A stretch of 64,000 bases of DNA from Escherichia coli (GTDB taxonomy: Bacteria; Pseudomonadota; Gammaproteobacteria; Enterobacterales; Enterobacteriaceae), in assembly GCF_965641715.1 (NCBI RefSeq), contig NZ_OZ282453.1. One strand, 5' to 3'. Below the pieces are notes generated by a model, which searched no databases, had not been told where the DNA came from, and saw nothing but the letters and a program-made list of their open reading frames with translations. The stretch's first letter is position 1; every line of letters begins with the position of its first letter. This document shows, in pieces, positions 4,514 through 15,851 of the stretch. The translations under genes and the position numbers were made by a program.

Positions 4514-5064
4514 GTTTCAAAAGCGGTGTAACAACGAGGGTGGATAACGCTAAGGCCATTCTGGATGCGCTCAGGTCGTTAACCAAAAAAGATGTGCTGG
4601 TCGGCATCCCTTCGGAAGACAGCGAGCGGGATGATGTTCCGTTTGGTAATGCGGGCATCGGTTACCTCAACGAATACGGCTCACCAGAGCAGAACATCCC
4701 GCCACGACCTCACCTGGTCCCCGGCGTTAAATCGGCAGAAGAGCAGACGGTGCCGCAGCTCAAAGCCGCGGCGCAGGCTGCACTTGATGGTAATGCTGCG
4801 GGAGCAGAAAGCGCACTCAACCGTGCCGGAACACTGGCCGCTAATGGCGTCAGGCGTTACATGACCATTACCGGCTTTACGCCGCTTGCTGACAGTACTG
4901 TTGAAGCCCGGGCTCGTCGGGGGCGCAAGGGGGCAACACTGGAACTTGCCCGGCGTGCTGCTGGCGAATCTCCGGGAACCGAACTGGCGAAACCATTAAT
5001 TGATACCGGGCAATATCGCAGAGCTATTACCCATGTTGTGAGGGATAAAGATGCCGACTCTTGA
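4510..5064 (+). CDS. phage head-tail joining protein
   Basis: 184-aa ORF; start overlaps upstream stop (ATGA). Confidence 0.35.
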
Positions 5065-8034: not shown

Positions 8035-8222
8035 CCCTCAACAGCCTACCAGACGGGCTGTCTTATCTCCTTGACCCGGTTGATGCCGGGTTAATCCCTT
8101 ATTACGCGCTGAAGGATGGATCAATCGATCTGTGCGATATCGCGCTGATGAATGACCACCTGGCCGTTAAGGCTGACAACCAGCGCCGTATAGAGAAATG
8201 GAGAGAGGATAATGAACGCTGA
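8031..8222 (+). CDS. frameshift extension of tail assembly chaperone (-1 frame)
   Basis: -1 frame relative to 7582..8034, open across the slippery site. Confidence 0.4.
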   Translation: MTLNSLPDGLSYLLDPVDAGLIPYYALKDGSIDLCDIALMNDHLAVKADNQRRIEKWREDNER

Positions 8223-9582
8223 GACTATTAAAGATTTCCTCGTCTCGCTTGGTTTCGATATCGACGAAGCTGGCGCGGAAAAGTTCGATTCAGTCCTGGC
8301 CGGCACGACCGCAAACGCTATCAAAATGGGGCTGGCCGTCGAAGGTGCCGCGCTTACCGTGGTGGCCTTCACGGCTAAGATCGCCTCCGGTCTGGATAAT
8401 CTCTACTGGGCGTCACAGCGCACTGGCGCGACGGTACAGGGGATTCAGTCTATTGGCTATGCGGTTTCCCAAGTGGGCGGCAGCGTAGACGCGGCGCGCT
8501 CCTCTCTGGAAAGCCTCTCCCGATTTGTGCGTAACAATCCCGGCGCGGAAGGCTTCCTGAATCGCCTGGGCGTACAGACCCGTGACGCCAGCGGTAACAT
8601 GCGTGACATGGCCGCTATCTTTACGGGTGTCGGCCAGAAGCTCAGCAGCATGCCGTACTACCGGGCTAACCAGTATGCGCAGATGCTGGGGATTGACGAA
8701 AACACCCTCATGGCGATGCGCCGGGGTGTGGGCGGTTTCTCCGGGCACTACAGCGCAATGGCGAAGGCTATCGGCTTTAATGCTGACGAGGCGGCCAGAA
8801 GCTCCAATAAGTTCATGACTTCTCTGCGCGAGTTCGGCGCGATGGCAGGCATGGCCCGTGACAAAATCGGCTCTAATCTTGCTGGTGGTCTGGCGGGTTC
8901 GCTGGACACGCTGCGCCGTCATATTCTGGATAATTTCCCGCGCATCGAGCAGACCCTGACGAAAGCCATAAAAGGCATTCTGGCGCTCGGGGACATCATC
9001 GGGCGGTTGTTCTTCCGGCTTATTGAGGGGACATCCAGCCTTATTACCTGGTGGCAATCGCTGGATAAGCAAACCCGGGAGCTGATCTCGCTGTTTGGCG
9101 CACTGACGATTGCGCTGCGCATTCTGAACAGTACGTTCTGGATGTCGCCGGTTGGCCTCATTACCGCGCTGGCGGCGGGGATTGCCCTCCTGTGGGAGGA
9201 CTATCAGACCTGGAAGGAAGGCGGCGACAGCCTGATTGACTGGGGCAAGTGGAAACCGGAGGTCGATGCCGCGCTGAAGATGGTTCGTGACCTTAAAACG
9301 ACCGTTAACGATCTGGCGAAAGCGCTGGCGAAACTACTCAATATTGACCCCAAATCATGGTCCCTGAAGTGGGATTTCAGCAACTTCATCGACCAGATGG
9401 GCGAATTCAGCAAAATGCTGAACATGATCGCCGACCTGCTCAACGCTATCAAAGATGGACGCTGGGCTGATGCCGTCAGCATCGGCAAACAGATACTTAA
9501 TCAGGGCAGCGAAAATCCGTCAGCGATGCCGATGGTTACAGACAGCGCTAACAGTACTGCCGACTGGATTAAAGAGCACTGG

Positions 9583-9593
9583 GGATTCGATCC
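9583..9593. repeat. IS186 target-site duplication, left copy (GGATTCGATCC)
   Basis: 11 bp identical to 10933..10943, directly flanking the IS inverted repeats. Confidence 0.7.
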
Positions 9594-10932
9594 CATAAGC
9601 GCTAACTTAAGGGTTGAACCATCTGAAGAATGCGACGCCTCGGTGCCTCGTTAAGACGATGCCTCGCGTTCTTCAATTGCGTTTTGTAGGCTGTCAGGGA
9701 TACTGTCCCACGAATGGCCACCTGTAAGCTCCAGATGACCATTTTTGTTATTCTCCACAACGAGTTAGTTCTTCTTTTCGGATCCGGCACTTCTGGGGGG
9801 GAAATCCAGCGATGGCTGGATTATGTCGTCAATTAAAAATGCGGCGAGTAGATTAGCAAATATCCACGCTTTCGCGAGTTCAGGTTCCTTTGCACGCAAA
9901 GCATCCAGGTGCAGCAAACTTTTGAGCCGCTTAAAAGCCAGTTCAATTTGCCATCGCAGACGGTAACAATCAGCCACTTGCTCTGCTGAATATTCATCTT
10001 CCGGTAATGATGTTAGCAATAGCACATGGCCCGCTGCTTCCAGCGTTTCCGCCTGAACTACTCGTCCTTTTCGACGATTCTCGCTGAGCAGTCGGGTTTT
10101 ACTGATTAATGCTTTTTCGGGAGGAAGTGATACGGCAATGAGACGTGCCGGAAAGGGAGCTCCGGCTTTTTTATTACCTGAATTGCCTATCATTACAGTG
10201 GTTTCACCGTTCTTACCGCAATCCAGCCCGCGCAGAAAACCCATCATGTCAAAGCGCATTCCTTCTGCAGTTAACCAGCGCAATCCTCGCCAGTGAACCC
10301 GGACGATATAATCAGCTTCTCCAAAAGCAAGTGAGCGGATACATTCGGGACGCGAACCGAATCCCCGGTCAGCAATGCGTATCTCGTCTGCCGTTTGCGC
10401 AAATCGGTCCAGCCGTTCAGCGTCTCTGCTGTCGGTTAGCTCAAAATCAGTGAACTGACAGGTATGAGGATCATATCCCATATGTAGTCGCCATTCAGCG
10501 CTGCCGCCCCCGGGCGCACTGATTGCTGTTCCATCGACAAGACGCAATCTCTTTCCGCTTGTACAACCCGTAACTGCGGCGCGTACAGCAAGTGTTTGTG
10601 CGGCAAGTATGCCAAACCAGTCGGCGGCATTCCGCAGCCGCTTCAGGAGAGCCACGTCAGATAATGTTGCAACGTCATGGAGCTGAGCCCATGCAGTGAC
10701 TTCACGTAATGACATCCCCCCGGGGCCGTAAGCCAGCCCCAGACGTAGCAGAGTTGCAGCATCACGAATTTCGCGGCGGCGGGTTAGAGCCCCGGCATTA
10801 CGTGCCGAAGTATCCAGTTCTTCGGGCTTACCAATATGGGCCAGAATTGCTGACCAGTTATCGTGAGAGTAATTCATCGGCACGTTAAATCATATCAGGC
10901 GTAATACCACAACCCTTAAGTTAGCGCTTATG
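9594..10932 (-). mobile_element. IS186 insertion sequence
   Basis: 23-bp perfect terminal inverted repeats CATAAGCGCTAACTTAAGGGTTG (9594..9616 and reverse complement 10910..10932) around a 372-aa IS4-family transposase. Confidence 0.85.
9765..10883 (-). CDS. insL: IS186 transposase
   Basis: 372-aa ORF beginning MPMNYSHDNWSAILAHIGKPEELD..., recognised as IS186 InsL. Confidence 0.8.
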   Translation of the reverse strand: MPMNYSHDNWSAILAHIGKPEELDTSARNAGALTRRREIRDAATLLRLGLAYGPGGMSLREVTAWAQLHDVATLSDVALLKRLRNAADWFGILAAQTLAVRAAVTGCTSGKRLRLVDGTAISAPGGGSAEWRLHMGYDPHTCQFTDFELTDSRDAERLDRFAQTADEIRIADRGFGSRPECIRSLAFGEADYIVRVHWRGLRWLTAEGMRFDMMGFLRGLDCGKNGETTVMIGNSGNKKAGAPFPARLIAVSLPPEKALISKTRLLSENRRKGRVVQAETLEAAGHVLLLTSLPEDEYSAEQVADCYRLRWQIELAFKRLKSLLHLDALRAKEPELAKAWIFANLLAAFLIDDIIQPSLDFPPRSAGSEKKN

Positions 10933-10943
10933 GGATTCGATCC
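10933..10943. repeat. IS186 target-site duplication, right copy
   Basis: Identical 11 bp to 9583..9593. Confidence 0.7.
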
Positions 10944-11549
10944 CCGCAGTGTGGGCCGGACGGTACGCGGCTGGTTTGGTGATGATGAGCCGGAACAACA
11001 TGCACAGGCTACGAAACGAGGAGAGCGGAATAACAATCCGGGAAACCTTAATTTTGCTGGTCAGGCGGGGGCTTCTCTTGAACACCCGGGCGGGCGATTT
11101 GCCAGATTTGAAACTGCCTTTGATGGATTACGGGCTCTTGCTCGTCAGTTAATGTTGTACGCCGGGCGAGGAATAAACAGTGTGGAAAAAATTATCTCTA
11201 CCTGGGCACCTGCCTCTGATAATAACAACACAACTGCGTATATCAGGGCTGTATCGCAACGACTGGGAGTGGATCCCCGGGCTGCCCTGAATATGAGCGA
11301 TCCGAAAACCATGTCAGCATTGATGAGCAGCATTATCCAGCATGAAAATGGAAGAAATATCTATTCTCGAGCGCTGATTAATAAGGCTGCCGTGGCGGGA
11401 ATTAGTGGCAAAATGACAGAGGTTAACCAGCAAAATACCTACCACATTTACGGTGGCGGAGATCCGCACGCTGTCGGTAATGAGGTTGCACGTCGGCAAC
11501 AGTCTGCAAATGCTCAGGTCATGCGAAGTAATCAGGTGAGGGTGGGTTA

Positions 11550-12137
11550 GTGGATATTCTCTCTACACTTTTTCATCAGCAGAGCAGAAAAATAGGAATG
11601 ATTGTTCCCAGTGTTGTTATTTCAGAGAAGCATACAGATATGCTTGAAATAACCGAGCATCCGGTAGAGGTCGGGGCTGCTGTCGCTGATCATGCCTATA
11701 AAAAACCGTCAGAAGTGGTGATGGAGGTTGGTTTCGCCGGTGGCGGCACATTGCTGGATTTTGCCAGTAACCTGACGGCTACCAGCCTGCTCGGCCTGAG
11801 TCCTCAGCAGACGTATCAGGAGCTACTGGATCTGCAGGAAAGCCGTATCCCCTTCGATGTGGTAACCGGTAAACGGCTGTACAGCAACATGTTGATCCGG
11901 GCGCTGGAAGTGACGACGGACAAGACAACCGAAAATGTCCTGTCCGCCGTCCTTACCCTGAGGGAGGTCCTTATCTCCCGGACACAGCAGATTACCGTCG
12001 CGGATAAAACCAACATGAAGGAAGGGGCCAGCACGTCGGCGGTACAGAATAGCGGCAACAAAACCACAAAGCCTCCAGATACTTCACTGCTGAAAAGCAT
12101 TACGGGTAACGTGGCGTCATTACTAGGAGGCGGCTAA
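11550..12137 (+). CDS. phage tail protein (possibly gpU-like)
   Basis: 195-aa ORF immediately after tape measure. Confidence 0.3.
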   Translation: MDILSTLFHQQSRKIGMIVPSVVISEKHTDMLEITEHPVEVGAAVADHAYKKPSEVVMEVGFAGGGTLLDFASNLTATSLLGLSPQQTYQELLDLQESRIPFDVVTGKRLYSNMLIRALEVTTDKTTENVLSAVLTLREVLISRTQQITVADKTNMKEGASTSAVQNSGNKTTKPPDTSLLKSITGNVASLLGGG

Positions 12138-12439
12138 TGACAATTCAGGAAATTCCGCTGACAGCGGACAACCAGCAGTTCAGCATCGTCCTGGGCGGTG
12201 TCACCTGGCGGATTAGCATCATATGGCGCGATCTGTACTGGATTATGGACCTGCAGAATGACAGAGGGGAGCCGGTAATCTCCGGTATTCCTCTCGTCAC
12301 TGGCGCTGATCTGCTGGCGCAGTACGCCTGTATGGGGCTTGGTTTTAAGCTGTTGGTGGTCTGCGATGACAACACACAGGATTATCCCACGAAAACTGAC
12401 CTGGGCAGTCGCAGCCATTTACTGGTATCAACGGAGTAA
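12137..12439 (+). CDS. phage tail protein (possibly gpX-like)
   Basis: 100-aa ORF translationally coupled to neighbours. Confidence 0.3.
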   Translation: MTIQEIPLTADNQQFSIVLGGVTWRISIIWRDLYWIMDLQNDRGEPVISGIPLVTGADLLAQYACMGLGFKLLVVCDDNTQDYPTKTDLGSRSHLLVSTE

Positions 12440-12441
12440 GC

Positions 12442-13503
12442 ATGTCACAGAACTGGATGAGACATTTCGAGCTGCAGCTTGTGGACGGGAACGGTCAGGG
12501 AATTGAGCTAAGTGATTTTAAAGTCACCTTTACGATCGACTGGTTCAACATCAGCAGTGCGTCCCGGGTAGGGACTATCAAAATTTATAACCTCTCGGCA
12601 GATACTGTGAACCGAATCACCGGGCAGGAGTTTTCGAAAGTGCGTCTGATTGCGGGTTACGACGGTATCGCGCCGGAGGTGTCGGCAAGCGACGTCGGGA
12701 CTGTGCGGGAAGTTGACGCGGCGGACGTGGGCCAGAGTGATGGCCGCAACTACGGACTAATTTTCAGCGGTGAAATTCGCTACTCGGTCACAGGAAAAGA
12801 CAGTCCGGTTGATTCCTACGTCCTGATTCAGGCAGCAGATACTGATCTGGCTTTTGCCACCAGTATAACCTCACAGACGCTGGCTGCCGGTTACACGGTC
12901 GCTGATGTGAACCGTGCGCTGATGAAAGACTTCGAAGCCAAAGGCGCGACCGAAGGCCTGACGCCTGAAATGCCTGCTACTGTATTCCCCCGGGGGCGGG
13001 TGCTCTTTGGCATGACGCGGCATCTAATGGATAACGTAGCCGGGCAATGTGGCGCAACATGGCAATTCGTGGACGGTCAGCGCCAGATGGTGGCGAATAA
13101 CGAATATGTTCACGAAGCGATTGTGCTCAACAGTGCTACCGGGCTTATTGGCATGCCGCAGCAGACCATCGGTAACGGCGTAAACGTCCGTGCGCTCATT
13201 AATCCGAACATCCGGGTTAACGGGCTCATTCAGCTGGATCAGGCTTCTGTATATCGCACCGCGTTGTCGAACAACGATATCGCTATGGCTGGTGGGCAGA
13301 TCACCGACCAGAACACGGACGGAAATATTACGCTCAGCGGCACCACATCACAGCCTGCCAGCATCGCAACGGATGGCGTTTATATTGTGCGCGGGATTAT
13401 GTACACTGGCGACACAAGGGGCCAGGTGTGGTACATGGATATGATGTGCGAAGCGCGTGGCGCGGCGGATCTGTATACGCAATCGGCTTTGCAAAGGGGA
13501 TGA
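12442..13503 (+). CDS. phage baseplate hub-like protein
   Basis: 353-aa ORF between tape measure-associated genes and baseplate genes. Confidence 0.4.
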   Translation: MSQNWMRHFELQLVDGNGQGIELSDFKVTFTIDWFNISSASRVGTIKIYNLSADTVNRITGQEFSKVRLIAGYDGIAPEVSASDVGTVREVDAADVGQSDGRNYGLIFSGEIRYSVTGKDSPVDSYVLIQAADTDLAFATSITSQTLAAGYTVADVNRALMKDFEAKGATEGLTPEMPATVFPRGRVLFGMTRHLMDNVAGQCGATWQFVDGQRQMVANNEYVHEAIVLNSATGLIGMPQQTIGNGVNVRALINPNIRVNGLIQLDQASVYRTALSNNDIAMAGGQITDQNTDGNITLSGTTSQPASIATDGVYIVRGIMYTGDTRGQVWYMDMMCEARGAADLYTQSALQRG

Positions 13504-13506
13504 GCA

Positions 13507-13848
13507 ATGAGGGGTATTATTTTTCTGTTAGCTGTCTTTTCTGCGTGCAGCGCGTGGGCGGATGGCTTCACGGTTAAATGCGGTGGCTACACTATGGTTG
13601 CAAACCAGGGCGAGTTATCGACAATCAACGGTGAAAGAGTTACCTCTCAAAAAATCACCGAACTGGGTACCAATGGTTTGAAAGTAGACATGGGGATTAT
13701 GCCTGCCAAAGACGGTAACAACTACGGCTTTGAATACATTCGTCGCCCTGGTACCGAAACGCGATTCCTGAATGTGCAACTGCTGCAGAACAGCATGGAC
13801 GCGCCGAAAATCATCGGGTCTTTCCCGTGTAAAAAGGTTAATCAGTAA
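13507..13848 (+). CDS. phage-encoded lipoprotein (possible exclusion protein)
   Basis: N-terminus MRGIIFLLAVFSACSAWA is a signal peptide with lipobox (FSAC); RBS AAGGGGA upstream. Confidence 0.5.
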   Translation: MRGIIFLLAVFSACSAWADGFTVKCGGYTMVANQGELSTINGERVTSQKITELGTNGLKVDMGIMPAKDGNNYGFEYIRRPGTETRFLNVQLLQNSMDAPKIIGSFPCKKVNQ

Positions 13849-13907
13849 AGCTATAATCCATTTCTGACATCAATTTCAGGCAGTTGATTCTGGGGTTAAG
13901 GATTATT

Positions 13908-14684
13908 ATGGCTACACCAGCTAAAGCATCCAGTAACTATGTTATCCAGTTCGGGGCGATGCTTGAAGAAAATGCTTCGATAGATGAGTTCACTTATCGT
14001 TACGTTTTACGCAATTATTCATCCAGCACTGAAGGCAACGATGTTAGCGCGGTTGGTTTTGCTTATGCTTTAAATGGTGAAGATGATCTAGCCTATGAAC
14101 ATTTTCATAAGCATCTGAAAATGGGCAACATCACTATTGCAAAGAATTTCGCTGCTTTCCTTTTCAAACGACATCACTACCGCCAGTTACATGAAATTAT
14201 TTATCAACTTGCTGATGCGTTTGGCGGGAAAATGTTGACTATGCTTGCTGCTGCGGAATCTTATCGGGTTGGTGACCTGGCGGCAATCCAGAAATACATG
14301 GAATGGCACTGTCGTTTACTGTCAGAAAACGATGACAAGTACGGAGCTGAAGCCTATATGCGTGAGCTTATCGATGGTGTTAAAGGATGTTACGAGGCAA
14401 AAGTTTGTACACCTGAGCAGTTTAGATTGCTTGGGGACATCACTCATTCGATCCTTGAAGAACGTAAACTTATTCCCGGTAGCTTGGGAATTTTCAGCTC
14501 TATGGGCGGTGATTATCTCGTGCAAGTGGAGAAAGCTACTCCGGAAGATATCGTTTTGATGAATTTTGATTTGGCTGAAAGGATATGTTCTGAGTCAAGG
14601 TTAGACGACTGTGAAATGACTGCTCGTTTCTCGGTTTTAAGGGAGTCCCATACGAAGGAAACTTATGACTATTCAGAGTTTTGA
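13908..14684 (+). CDS. hypothetical protein, partner of HEPN-like gene
   Basis: 258-aa ORF with RBS TAAGGA; AT-rich compared with flanking tail genes; 3' end overlaps next gene by 20 nt. Confidence 0.5.
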   Translation: MATPAKASSNYVIQFGAMLEENASIDEFTYRYVLRNYSSSTEGNDVSAVGFAYALNGEDDLAYEHFHKHLKMGNITIAKNFAAFLFKRHHYRQLHEIIYQLADAFGGKMLTMLAAAESYRVGDLAAIQKYMEWHCRLLSENDDKYGAEAYMRELIDGVKGCYEAKVCTPEQFRLLGDITHSILEERKLIPGSLGIFSSMGGDYLVQVEKATPEDIVLMNFDLAERICSESRLDDCEMTARFSVLRESHTKETYDYSEF

Positions 14685-15036
14685 TTTTTTGCGTTCAAGT
14701 GAACATTGTTTAACTCTGGACGAAGAAGTTGGTTATCGTAATGCCGTATCGCGAGCCTACTATGCTATGTTTCATCGTGCTGGCGAGGCTCTGAAGCATG
14801 TCCCCTCTGTAGAACATAATCACCATGCTAATTTAATCAACTACATGCAAGGTAGGATGGGCACACCTAAGGAAGAAATACCTCCTGCAAGATTAAAAAT
14901 ACTTGCATACGATCTCCGCCAAATGAGACAAGCGCGGAATGAAGCCGACTATCGCTTATCTGACTCCAAGATAAATGCTGACGTTGCCAAGGAATCATTA
15001 TTAACCGCGCAGCATTTTTTTAAACGGATTTCATAA
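14665..15036 (+). CDS. HEPN-domain-like protein
   Basis: 123-aa ORF with SRAYYAMFHRAGEAL helix resembling the HEPN fold; strong RBS GAAGGAAA. Confidence 0.5.
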   Translation: MTIQSFDFLRSSEHCLTLDEEVGYRNAVSRAYYAMFHRAGEALKHVPSVEHNHHANLINYMQGRMGTPKEEIPPARLKILAYDLRQMRQARNEADYRLSDSKINADVAKESLLTAQHFFKRIS

Positions 15037-15057
15037 AAAGTCACTATTTACCACGAA

Positions 15058-15079
15058 CCCGCCATCCGGCGGGTTTTTT
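15058..15079 (+). terminator. intrinsic terminator after HEPN cassette
   Basis: Hairpin CCCGCC-ATCC-GGCGGG followed by TTTTTT. Confidence 0.6.
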
Positions 15080-15098
15080 GCTTTCTGGAGCCTACTAA

Positions 15099-15851
15099 AT
15101 GGCAGTATCTGACCAGACCCGCAGCGGCGACCTTGCCGAAACATTCAAATCTGAACGGGAAACAACAAAGAACCAGATCCGTGTCGCCTTGCCTGGCATT
15201 ATTCAGTCATTCGATCCTGATGCGGTGACGGCAGTTGTGCAGCCTGCTATCCGTTCGGTTGAAAAGGATAATGACGGCAACCGCATTACCAAAAATTACC
15301 CATTGCTGGTGGATGTGCCAGTGGTATTCCCACGCGGCGGAGGATGTACGCTAACGTTCCCAGCTAAAGCCGGTGATGAATGTTTGGTGATTTTTGCCGA
15401 TCGTTGTATTGATTTCTGGTGGCAGAGTGGCGGGATACAGGAGCCGGTCGATGACAGAATGCATGATTTATCGGATGCGTTTTGTATTGTCGGTCCCCAG
15501 TCGCAGGCAAGGAAGATTAGCGGTATTAATACCAGTGCCACACAGTTGCGTAGTGACGACGGCAGCACCTATTTTGAGCTTAATCCTGATACCAGGAAAA
15601 TTAAAATTGTCGCTCCGGGTGGTCTTGATGTGGTTGCCCCTCTGGCTGATTTTTCTGAGAAAGTAACCATTCATGGCCTGTTAACCTGGATGGGGGGCAT
15701 GGTGGGGTCTGTTGTTTCTGGTGTGGCTTCAAAAATCACTGGTGCTGTTGAGTTTTTGGGTAGCGTGAAGGCTAACGGCAAGCTAATCGATGATACGCAC
15801 ACTCATGGTGGTGTTCAGCGCGGTGGAAGCAATACCGACGGAGTAAACTGA
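15099..15851 (+). CDS. phage baseplate spike/assembly protein (gpV-like)
   Basis: 250-aa ORF; position and size as in P2-type V-W-J-I order. Confidence 0.45.
   Translation: MAVSDQTRSGDLAETFKSERETTKNQIRVALPGIIQSFDPDAVTAVVQPAIRSVEKDNDGNRITKNYPLLVDVPVVFPRGGGCTLTFPAKAGDECLVIFADRCIDFWWQSGGIQEPVDDRMHDLSDAFCIVGPQSQARKISGINTSATQLRSDDGSTYFELNPDTRKIKIVAPGGLDVVAPLADFSEKVTIHGLLTWMGGMVGSVVSGVASKITGAVEFLGSVKANGKLIDDTHTHGGVQRGGSNTDGVN

Follow-up and report, generated by a model that had tools for sequence, protein, structure and literature searches.

A conserved gene beside the baseplate hub gene of SEN34-like prophages encodes a predicted secreted, apparently accessory protein with a tentative role in guarding the cell envelope

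In a 64,000-nucleotide (nt) stretch of an Escherichia coli genome (RefSeq assembly GCF_965641715.1, contig NZ_OZ282453.1; this whole stretch is referred to as the window), we analyzed a small open reading frame (ORF) at positions 13507-13848, which lies in the tail and baseplate gene cluster of a prophage. The ORF is a real, conserved gene of a family that is already catalogued. From its sequence, the 113-amino-acid (aa) product appears to be secreted via Sec and signal peptidase I (SPase I) and, as far as can be judged from comparing loci, the gene is accessory and stands outside the conserved baseplate module that surrounds it. As to function, we tentatively favor the view that the protein acts in the periplasm to protect its host cell from incoming phage.

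The conservation of the ORF lies far beyond what chance would produce. Its product, which begins with MRGIIFLLAVFSACSAWADGFTVKCGG and ends with FPCKKVNQ, matched phrog_3443 in PHROGs with an E-value of 1.6e-47 (residues 2-112 on profile positions 2-114 of 115). In a 90%-clustered database of a 5.8-billion-protein collection 384 homologues were found, and when 1.84 billion proteins are clustered at 50% identity, the family makes up 60 of the clusters. The gene is carried by 286 of 5426 complete E. coli genomes (about 5%), and the allele of the window is the commonest one in this species. RefSeq labels a 98%-identical copy as 'STY1065/STY2022 family phage-derived protein'; neither this catalogue nor PHROGs assigns a function, and a literature search returned no paper on the phrog_3443/STY1065-type family.

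The small gene and the hub gene are read jointly. Three nt separate the hub stop codon (TGA, 13501-13503) from the small ORF, whose ATG begins at the fourth nt, and the Shine-Dalgarno-like sequence is situated inside the hub coding region (coordinates of all features are listed in Table 1). This arrangement was found throughout about 90 loci, drawn from E. coli genomes, cultured phages, 80 IMG/VR contigs and metagenome contigs, in which the start of the small gene either lies within 2-4 nt of the hub stop or overlaps the hub gene. An earlier sequence-only reading of the window had described a 113-aa ORF in a phage tail region that is translationally coupled to a hub-like gene, and it was right about the coordinates, length and coupling as well as about the setting, given that the ORF abuts a phrog_196 hub gene within a prophage tail/baseplate cluster. 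The hub protein also showed a match to PF22759 (E217_GP41) with an E-value of 7e-5, which is below Pfam's cutoff. No sigma-70-like promoter was found on the + strand between 12400 and 15200, and expression in the lysogen, which is needed for lysogenic conversion of the Cor type, is therefore unsupported.

The N-terminus of the protein has the layout of a Sec-dependent signal peptide with an SPase I cleavage site: a basic n-region (M-R), the hydrophobic stretch GIIFLLAVFSAC in keeping with an h-region of 10-13 residues, and small residues at -3 and -1 in S-A-W-A, ahead of D. The two alanines of this site, A16 and A18, are nearly invariant in the first of our two alignments (A1), 62 of 68 distinct full-length family N-termini show a -3/-1 motif, and the same signal pattern was seen in a family-wide alignment of 19 representatives that reaches down to 19% identity. 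A lipobox-like cysteine occurs in only seven of these 68 N-termini, which belong to four lineages. Two 81%-identical relatives (P0006 and P0008) have a serine where the window allele has Cys14, within IFLSSSALA preceding a predicted cut before NG, and large groups from Klebsiella, Salmonella and E. coli read SFGASA, SFSAAA or SFGATA. Because the SPase I site is conserved and the lipobox cysteine is not, the family as a whole reads as Sec/SPase I-secreted, and lipoprotein character would not be a family trait.

The sequence-only reading had assigned the protein a classical lipoprotein signal. One part of this description stood, as the F-S-A-C of the window allele does resemble a lipobox and fits the permissive lipobox residue classes, although the F at -3 is non-canonical. 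The remainder did not. The PROSITE rule PS51257 places the lipidated cysteine at positions 15-35; Cys14 comes earlier than this range, is directly followed by the AWA site, and would imply a 13-residue signal with six residues left between the lipid anchor and the first strand. In the window allele, lipid anchoring may be one of two possible processing routes. The gene product is therefore better described as a conserved hypothetical protein that is secreted rather than classically lipidated. Membrane anchoring does seem to recur in the family, since in addition to the four lineages with a cysteine there are two fused forms, P0135 (292 aa) and P0160 (265 aa), with clear lipoboxes (LSGC and LVSC, respectively). 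In both, the barrel domain described below is C-terminal and is preceded by an N-terminal domain of ~190 residues without a family match. P0135 (8001-8879 of locus L009) occupies the same slot 3' of the hub gene. P0160 (6001-6798 of locus L099) closely follows a hub remnant within a decayed prophage; its C-terminus is apparently truncated.

For the mature protein (~10 kDa), an AlphaFold2 (AF2) model based on a 15-sequence alignment reached a predicted local distance difference test score (pLDDT) of 77.5 and a predicted template modeling score (pTM) of 0.66, with low pLDDT in the signal region. Residues 21-112 form eight consecutive β-strands, and the predicted structure is a soluble eight-stranded β-barrel. 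The family's conserved cysteines, Cys25 and Cys108, are located in the first and the last strand of the model, and since these strands are adjacent in a closed barrel, a Cys25-Cys108 disulfide that closes the barrel is likely. Such a bond would fit a periplasmic location. Searches for known relatives were without result: Foldseek comparison of the model with the PDB and with viral models gave nothing at E<0.01, a PDB sequence profile search gave chance-level matches only, Pfam (at E<=0.01 and at E<=10), NCBIfam and PADLOC had no match for the small protein, and none of 15 family members matched PF09864 (MliC/PliC) at E<=10. PHROGs returned phrog_3443 only, and no Cor or Llp family. A structure prediction followed by a fold search for likeness to Cor/Llp had been proposed with the sequence-only reading; run here with AF2 and Foldseek, it found none in the PDB, where the solved Llp (in the FhuA-Llp complex) was no fold match either. 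A role as spanin or in lysis was considered separately and rejected on architecture, since the small protein has no C-terminal transmembrane segment.

These results bear on the idea that the sequence-only reading had offered by analogy only, a superinfection-exclusion factor that, like Cor or Llp, would block the phage receptor. In such a model, the protein would be an outer-membrane lipoprotein that binds the receptor from the periplasmic side and makes it unusable. The serine at +2 of the lipobox in the window allele and the lipoboxes in four lineages and two fused forms would agree with this, and Llp is likewise small, disulfide-containing, periplasm-facing and encoded beside a tail gene (PMC9586334). 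We consider such a receptor jam very unlikely all the same, given that the cysteine is missing in 61 of the 68 N-termini while the SPase I site is the conserved feature, that the signal and tether implied by Cys14 are so short, that neither PHROGs, Pfam nor the PDB fold search points to Cor or Llp, and that the gene adjoins the hub gene and not the receptor-binding fibre genes. The fibres of these phages are, moreover, of an invertible, assembly-protein-dependent type.

The comparison of loci indicates that the small gene is accessory, because one phage with the same module lacks it, because different ORFs take its place in other phages, and because its alleles assort freely. In Providencia phage PSTCR3 there is no gene in the slot and the hub gene overlaps the spike gene, and in Burkholderia phage Magia, Hafnia phage yong1 and phage EKP1 unrelated ORFs fill the slot, those of Magia and EKP1 carrying signal peptides. 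The family is absent from PSTCR3, Magia and EKP1, which does not agree with a gene that the baseplate module requires. Within the SEN34-like group, to which the window prophage belongs, the phage small gene was present in every locus examined, even where the cargo slot that follows it was empty (61-63 nt). The contact of hub and spike in PSTCR3 and the free assortment of alleles speak for an accessory rather than a structural gene. That the protein is instead a structural or assembly component of the baseplate, with a hydrophobic N-terminus that is no export signal, would agree with the position of its gene between hub and spike and with the coupling to the hub gene. We regard this as hardly credible: the signal peptide is canonical with a conserved cleavage site and there is an invariant cysteine pair, PSTCR3 has the same type of baseplate module without the gene at this place, alleles are swapped independently of all neighboring structural genes, and stand-alone chromosomal copies exist.

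As a side observation, signal-peptide proteins that do not belong to the family are encoded near the hub gene in EKP1 (L013, about 4530-4790), Magia (L015, 4457-4828) and PSTCR3 (L014, 2963-3436), the one in EKP1 being an unannotated, Thr/Gly-rich secreted protein of ~80 aa. Exported proteins seem to be enriched at the hub-adjacent position.

The free assortment was evident at several levels. Phage vB_EcoM-683R1 is 97-98% identical to the window in Dit, plug, hub, spike, sheath initiator and baseplate J proteins, whereas its small protein is only 54% identical. Over the 80 IMG/VR loci, the mature part of the small protein falls into alleles of about 98, 80 or 61% identity, and these combine freely with three types of tape-measure C-domain (98, 82 and 38-40%) as well as with three types of spike C-domain (98, 85 and 43%). 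The GC content is 0.546 for the hub gene, 0.477 for the small gene and 0.42 for the cargo. At the DNA level, homology to near-identical loci breaks about 35 nt 5' of the hub stop, and over 13470-13709 DNA identity is 40-78% to loci with hubs that are otherwise 97-98% identical. The 3' part of the small gene is again conserved, and homology breaks once more 3' of the small-gene stop codon. Between alleles, the 5' half of the gene and the last ~11 hub codons diverge as far as unrelated DNA would; the 3' 120 nt are nearly identical. It is possible that this conserved part serves as a recombination anchor for cargo exchange; the mosaic as such would fit either a diversifying exchange of the N-terminal half or a 3'-end anchor for cargo swapping.

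Because all allele combinations occur, co-adaptation of the small protein with the wall-hydrolase domain of the tape measure or with the spike tip was rejected. This matters for a further alternative, in which the protein is a periplasmic inhibitor of a wall enzyme, with an action like that of Spackle and a build like that of PliC, MliC or PhiA, directed at the muramidase or transglycosylase of an incoming tape measure, at host lysozyme or at type VI effectors. In the phages examined, the tape measure does bear a wall hydrolase: the C-domain in the window (10930-11550) is endolysin-like (7q47_A, E 9e-14; Gp29 of 9vvp, E 1e-19), and an SLT transglycosylase domain is found on the tape measure of SEN34, yong1, EKP1 and L009. 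There is a precedent in Spackle (PMC7677548), and the coexistence of soluble and lipid-anchored forms in the family is reminiscent of PliC and MliC. We nonetheless rate this alternative as quite unlikely. The Pfam MliC family was not matched even at the most permissive threshold, and a single small-protein allele occurs with unrelated hydrolase types (muramidase-like and SLT), as one hydrolase type does with several alleles. An AF2 model in which a linker connected the mature protein with the C-domain of its own tape measure (pTM 0.39) gave no confident docking, which is a weak negative in view of the shallow alignment. Since both hydrolase types go with the same small-protein alleles and the fusion model shows no docking, a Spackle-like, self-specific inhibitor is not supported. 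As an observation on the tape measure itself, its C-domain is swapped between unrelated wall-hydrolase types in otherwise similar phages (window, 10930-11550; L001, 9513-10148; L004, 42-2048).

The family is not confined to prophages. A divergent chromosomal subfamily is located right after fliE in at least seven Pantoea genomes, in the order fliG-fliF / fliE-X (L104 5929-6342 in Pantoea agglomerans, and L105-L108, L110 and L111; several species), and another enterobacterium has a chromosomal copy between yciY and yciI, near cls and tonB (L097, 6001-6357). When a collection of genomes from 100,044 species was scanned with a query of the Pantoea-type subfamily, one genome per species, only 11 chromosomal loci were found. 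The stand-alone copies imply that the small protein can act without other phage proteins. They also raise the alternative that it is a host-type periplasmic protein, for instance in flagellar or envelope biology, which the phage carries as a passenger or as a lysogen fitness factor. The conserved place directly 3' of fliE and the yciY-yciI copy in a core-genome neighborhood are in line with this, and any link of the Pantoea copies to the flagellar rod or to passage through the cell wall would be pure speculation. On balance we think that a host-type role is unlikely, given that the phage copies are fixed in all SEN34-like loci examined, even those with an empty slot, and are coupled to a late structural gene, that the phage and Pantoea branches are only about 20-27% identical, and that the family is tiny outside prophages, as judged from the subfamily-specific scan. 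Selective retention of the gene in the decayed prophages L098 and L099 was considered as well and rejected; hub remnants remain upstream in both, so these loci reflect ordinary decay.

The reading that we favor, as a serious possibility rather than a probable one, is that the small protein is a periplasmic binder which acts after adsorption, at a periplasmic step, guarding the envelope of cells that carry or produce the phage against incoming phage. In this scheme the 113-aa protein would be exported to the periplasm, where its two cysteines would form the barrel-closing disulfide. Most family members would be free periplasmic proteins. In the window allele, a recent Ser/Tyr-to-Cys change at position 14 would have created FSAC, so that its product might be lipid-anchored, with the Ser at +2 pointing to the outer membrane. 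The protein would be made late, together with the tail proteins, and would have no part in the virion; protection of this sort would amount to superinfection exclusion, broadly understood. With the phage's own tape-measure hydrolase unsupported as a target, what is left is either some component of the host envelope or a feature conserved among incoming tails; we think the host component more probable, rather than any tape-measure or spike domain of the phage itself. A gene whose product is exported and which is accessory would be the right kind of gene for an exclusion factor that acts at the envelope.

Several points weigh against this guarding role. The coupling to a late operon and the failure to find a promoter of its own count against the lysogen expression that exclusion of the prophage type normally needs. 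None of the searches described above gave homology or a specific fold match to any exclusion protein or inhibitor, and our literature search found no experimental work on any family member. Lastly, a host-type periplasmic function unrelated to phage could explain the conserved fliE-adjacent Pantoea copies equally well. A more far-reaching version, which we consider quite doubtful, would see in the family a new class of periplasmic β-barrel guard proteins of prophages and Pantoea that bind a conserved envelope or trans-envelope component and block genome delivery by contractile tails, with a switch between soluble and lipid-tethered forms and a diversifying N-terminal half.

If the protein is indeed such a guard, this would be a new exclusion mechanism unrelated to those of Cor/Llp, Spackle, Imm and SieA, and a structurally new family would join the few exclusion proteins whose mechanism is understood. 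Periplasmic exclusion of this kind would also bear on the host range of phages used in therapy, given the carriage of the gene in E. coli, Klebsiella and Salmonella.

The surroundings of the gene are those of a temperate myophage. The sequence of the window corresponds to an E. coli prophage that is integrated at tRNA-Arg and encodes an IntS integrase; across the 1.7-kb query region (13400-15100), strain TL20 shows 100% identity. In type, the prophage agrees with Salmonella phage SEN34 (Brunovirus), a myovirus with lambdoid regulation, whose description is without virion proteomics (PMC5261728). The small-protein family belongs to these SEN34-like temperate myophages of Enterobacterales, with many prophages in Klebsiella and Salmonella. 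The gene order in the window is tape measure, Dit-like, plug, hub, small ORF, a 266-aa protein, a HEPN-like protein, a hairpin, spike, sheath initiator and baseplate J.

Table 1. Features of the window in and around the small gene
Feature	Position	Strand	Remarks
Dit-like protein gene	11550-12137		
Plug gene	12137-12439		
Baseplate hub gene	12442..13503	+	353 aa, directly 5' of the 113-aa ORF; phrog_196 'baseplate hub', E 2.4e-88
Allele-variable segment	13470..13709	+	last ~11 hub codons, signal peptide and N-terminal half of the small protein
Shine-Dalgarno-like AAGGGGA	13494..13500	+	within the final hub codons, 6 nt 5' of the ATG
Small ORF, 113 aa	13507..13848	+	ATG start; phrog_3443 = NCBI 'STY1065/STY2022 family phage-derived protein'
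Predicted signal peptide, residues 1-18 (MRGIIFLLAVFSACSAWA)	13507..13560	+	basic n-region, hydrophobic core, A-x-A site; layout common to the family
Lipobox-like F-S-A-C, residues 11-14	13537..13548	+	allele-specific; rare in family N-termini
SPase I -3/-1 site, A16-W-A18	13552..13560	+	predicted cleavage before D19
Mature domain, 95 residues	13561..13845	+	predicted 8-stranded up-and-down β-barrel
Cys25, first strand	13579..13581	+	invariant in alignment A1, nearly invariant in alignment A2
Conserved 3' part of the small gene	13710..13830	+	87-100% DNA identity across alleles
Cys108, last strand	13828..13830	+	invariant in alignments A1 and A2
Cargo gene 1, phrog_17809	13908..14684	+	258 aa from the annotated ATG; 266 aa from TTG 13884
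Cargo gene 2, 123-aa HEPN-like protein	14665..15036	+	PF05168 HEPN, E 0.001, below Pfam's cutoff; phrog_5176
Intrinsic-terminator-like hairpin and T-run	15055..15086	+	ends the cargo cassette
Membrane-puncturing spike gene	15099..15851	+	PF18352 N-terminal domain and Apex motif; delimits the variable slot on its 3' side

The segment that separates the small gene from the spike gene (13849-15098) is a hypervariable cargo slot, with a spacer that ranges from 61 to 1844 nt across the loci compared (L002, L003, L004-L007 and L016-L095). The window, E2348/69 and L009 have a two-gene cassette there, which exists in at least five mutually divergent versions and encodes a protein of ~243-266 aa together with a HEPN-like protein of ~123-142 aa. 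The product of cargo gene 1 had no match in Pfam or PADLOC, and that of cargo gene 2 is named 'HEPN domain-containing protein' in RefSeq. Elsewhere the slot is empty or is taken up by secreted or membrane proteins, an Ant-like protein, a DUF4282 protein or a YafO-toxin pair. PADLOC had no match for any of the eight slot proteins tested. Secreted cargo proteins in L060 and Magia were considered as possible paralogues of the small protein and rejected, as they match it in the signal peptide only. Whatever the small gene does, the hub-spike slot is a well-defined cargo hot spot that can be mined for new defense or toxin cassettes.

Two rearrangements were observed elsewhere in the prophage. The tape-measure gene is split by an insertion of 1337 bp (9595-10931), accompanied by a 13-bp target duplication, which leaves the parts 8212-9654 and 10930-11550; the transposase ORF of the insertion (9765-10883, - strand) looks like that of IS186. 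In TL20 the tape-measure gene is intact and encodes 662 aa. As a result of this split, the window prophage is probably defective for tail formation. The second concerns the tail-fibre and fibre-assembly segment 18412-19941, which is inverted relative to TL20 (93.6% identity) and beside which a truncated recombinase gene is annotated in TL20. In this it resembles the invertible host-range switches of the Gin/Cin type.

Among known systems, the closest parallels in logic are Llp of T5 together with Cor of phi80, N15 and T1, and Spackle of T4, and by analogy the small protein would resemble both while belonging to neither family. Llp and Cor are small, periplasm-facing proteins with an intramolecular disulfide that are encoded within the tail gene region (PMC9586334), and the small protein shares with them its size class, predicted export and tail-region location, and a disulfide that was deduced here from the model. 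They differ from it in being obligate lipoproteins of about 60-80 residues encoded beside the gene for the receptor-binding protein, whereas phrog_3443 members are mostly of the SPase I type, have 95 residues in the mature form with a predicted eight-stranded barrel, and are encoded beside the hub gene. No sequence or fold similarity between the two groups was detected, and unlike for Llp and Cor, no link to FhuA or another TonB-dependent transporter is known for the phrog_3443 family. Spackle (gp61.3), a small phage protein of the periplasm with a disulfide bond, has as its target a tail component that enters the periplasm (PMC7677548). It is an α-helical bundle, the product of an early gene, and specific for the gp5 lysozyme, in contrast to the all-β model, the late-gene coupling, the alleles that do not track the type of tape-measure hydrolase and the lack of docking in the fusion model that we describe for the small protein.

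A third likeness is to the morons of lambda-type phages (Bor and Lom) and to gp15 of HK97, which have no homology to the small protein. Classical morons have their own promoter and are expressed in the lysogen, whereas upstream of the small gene there is no intergenic space and no promoter was found, and the sole terminator lies 3' of the downstream cargo. The resemblance lies in the genetic organization: Bor, Lom and HK97 gp15 are accessory envelope proteins encoded in late or tail clusters and exchanged independently of their structural neighbors, and in the window, similarly, a terminator closes the inserted block, while GC content and allele assortment differ from those of the structural neighbors. 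Altogether, we rate the small protein as belonging among the exported accessory proteins that are encoded in the tail clusters of temperate phages.

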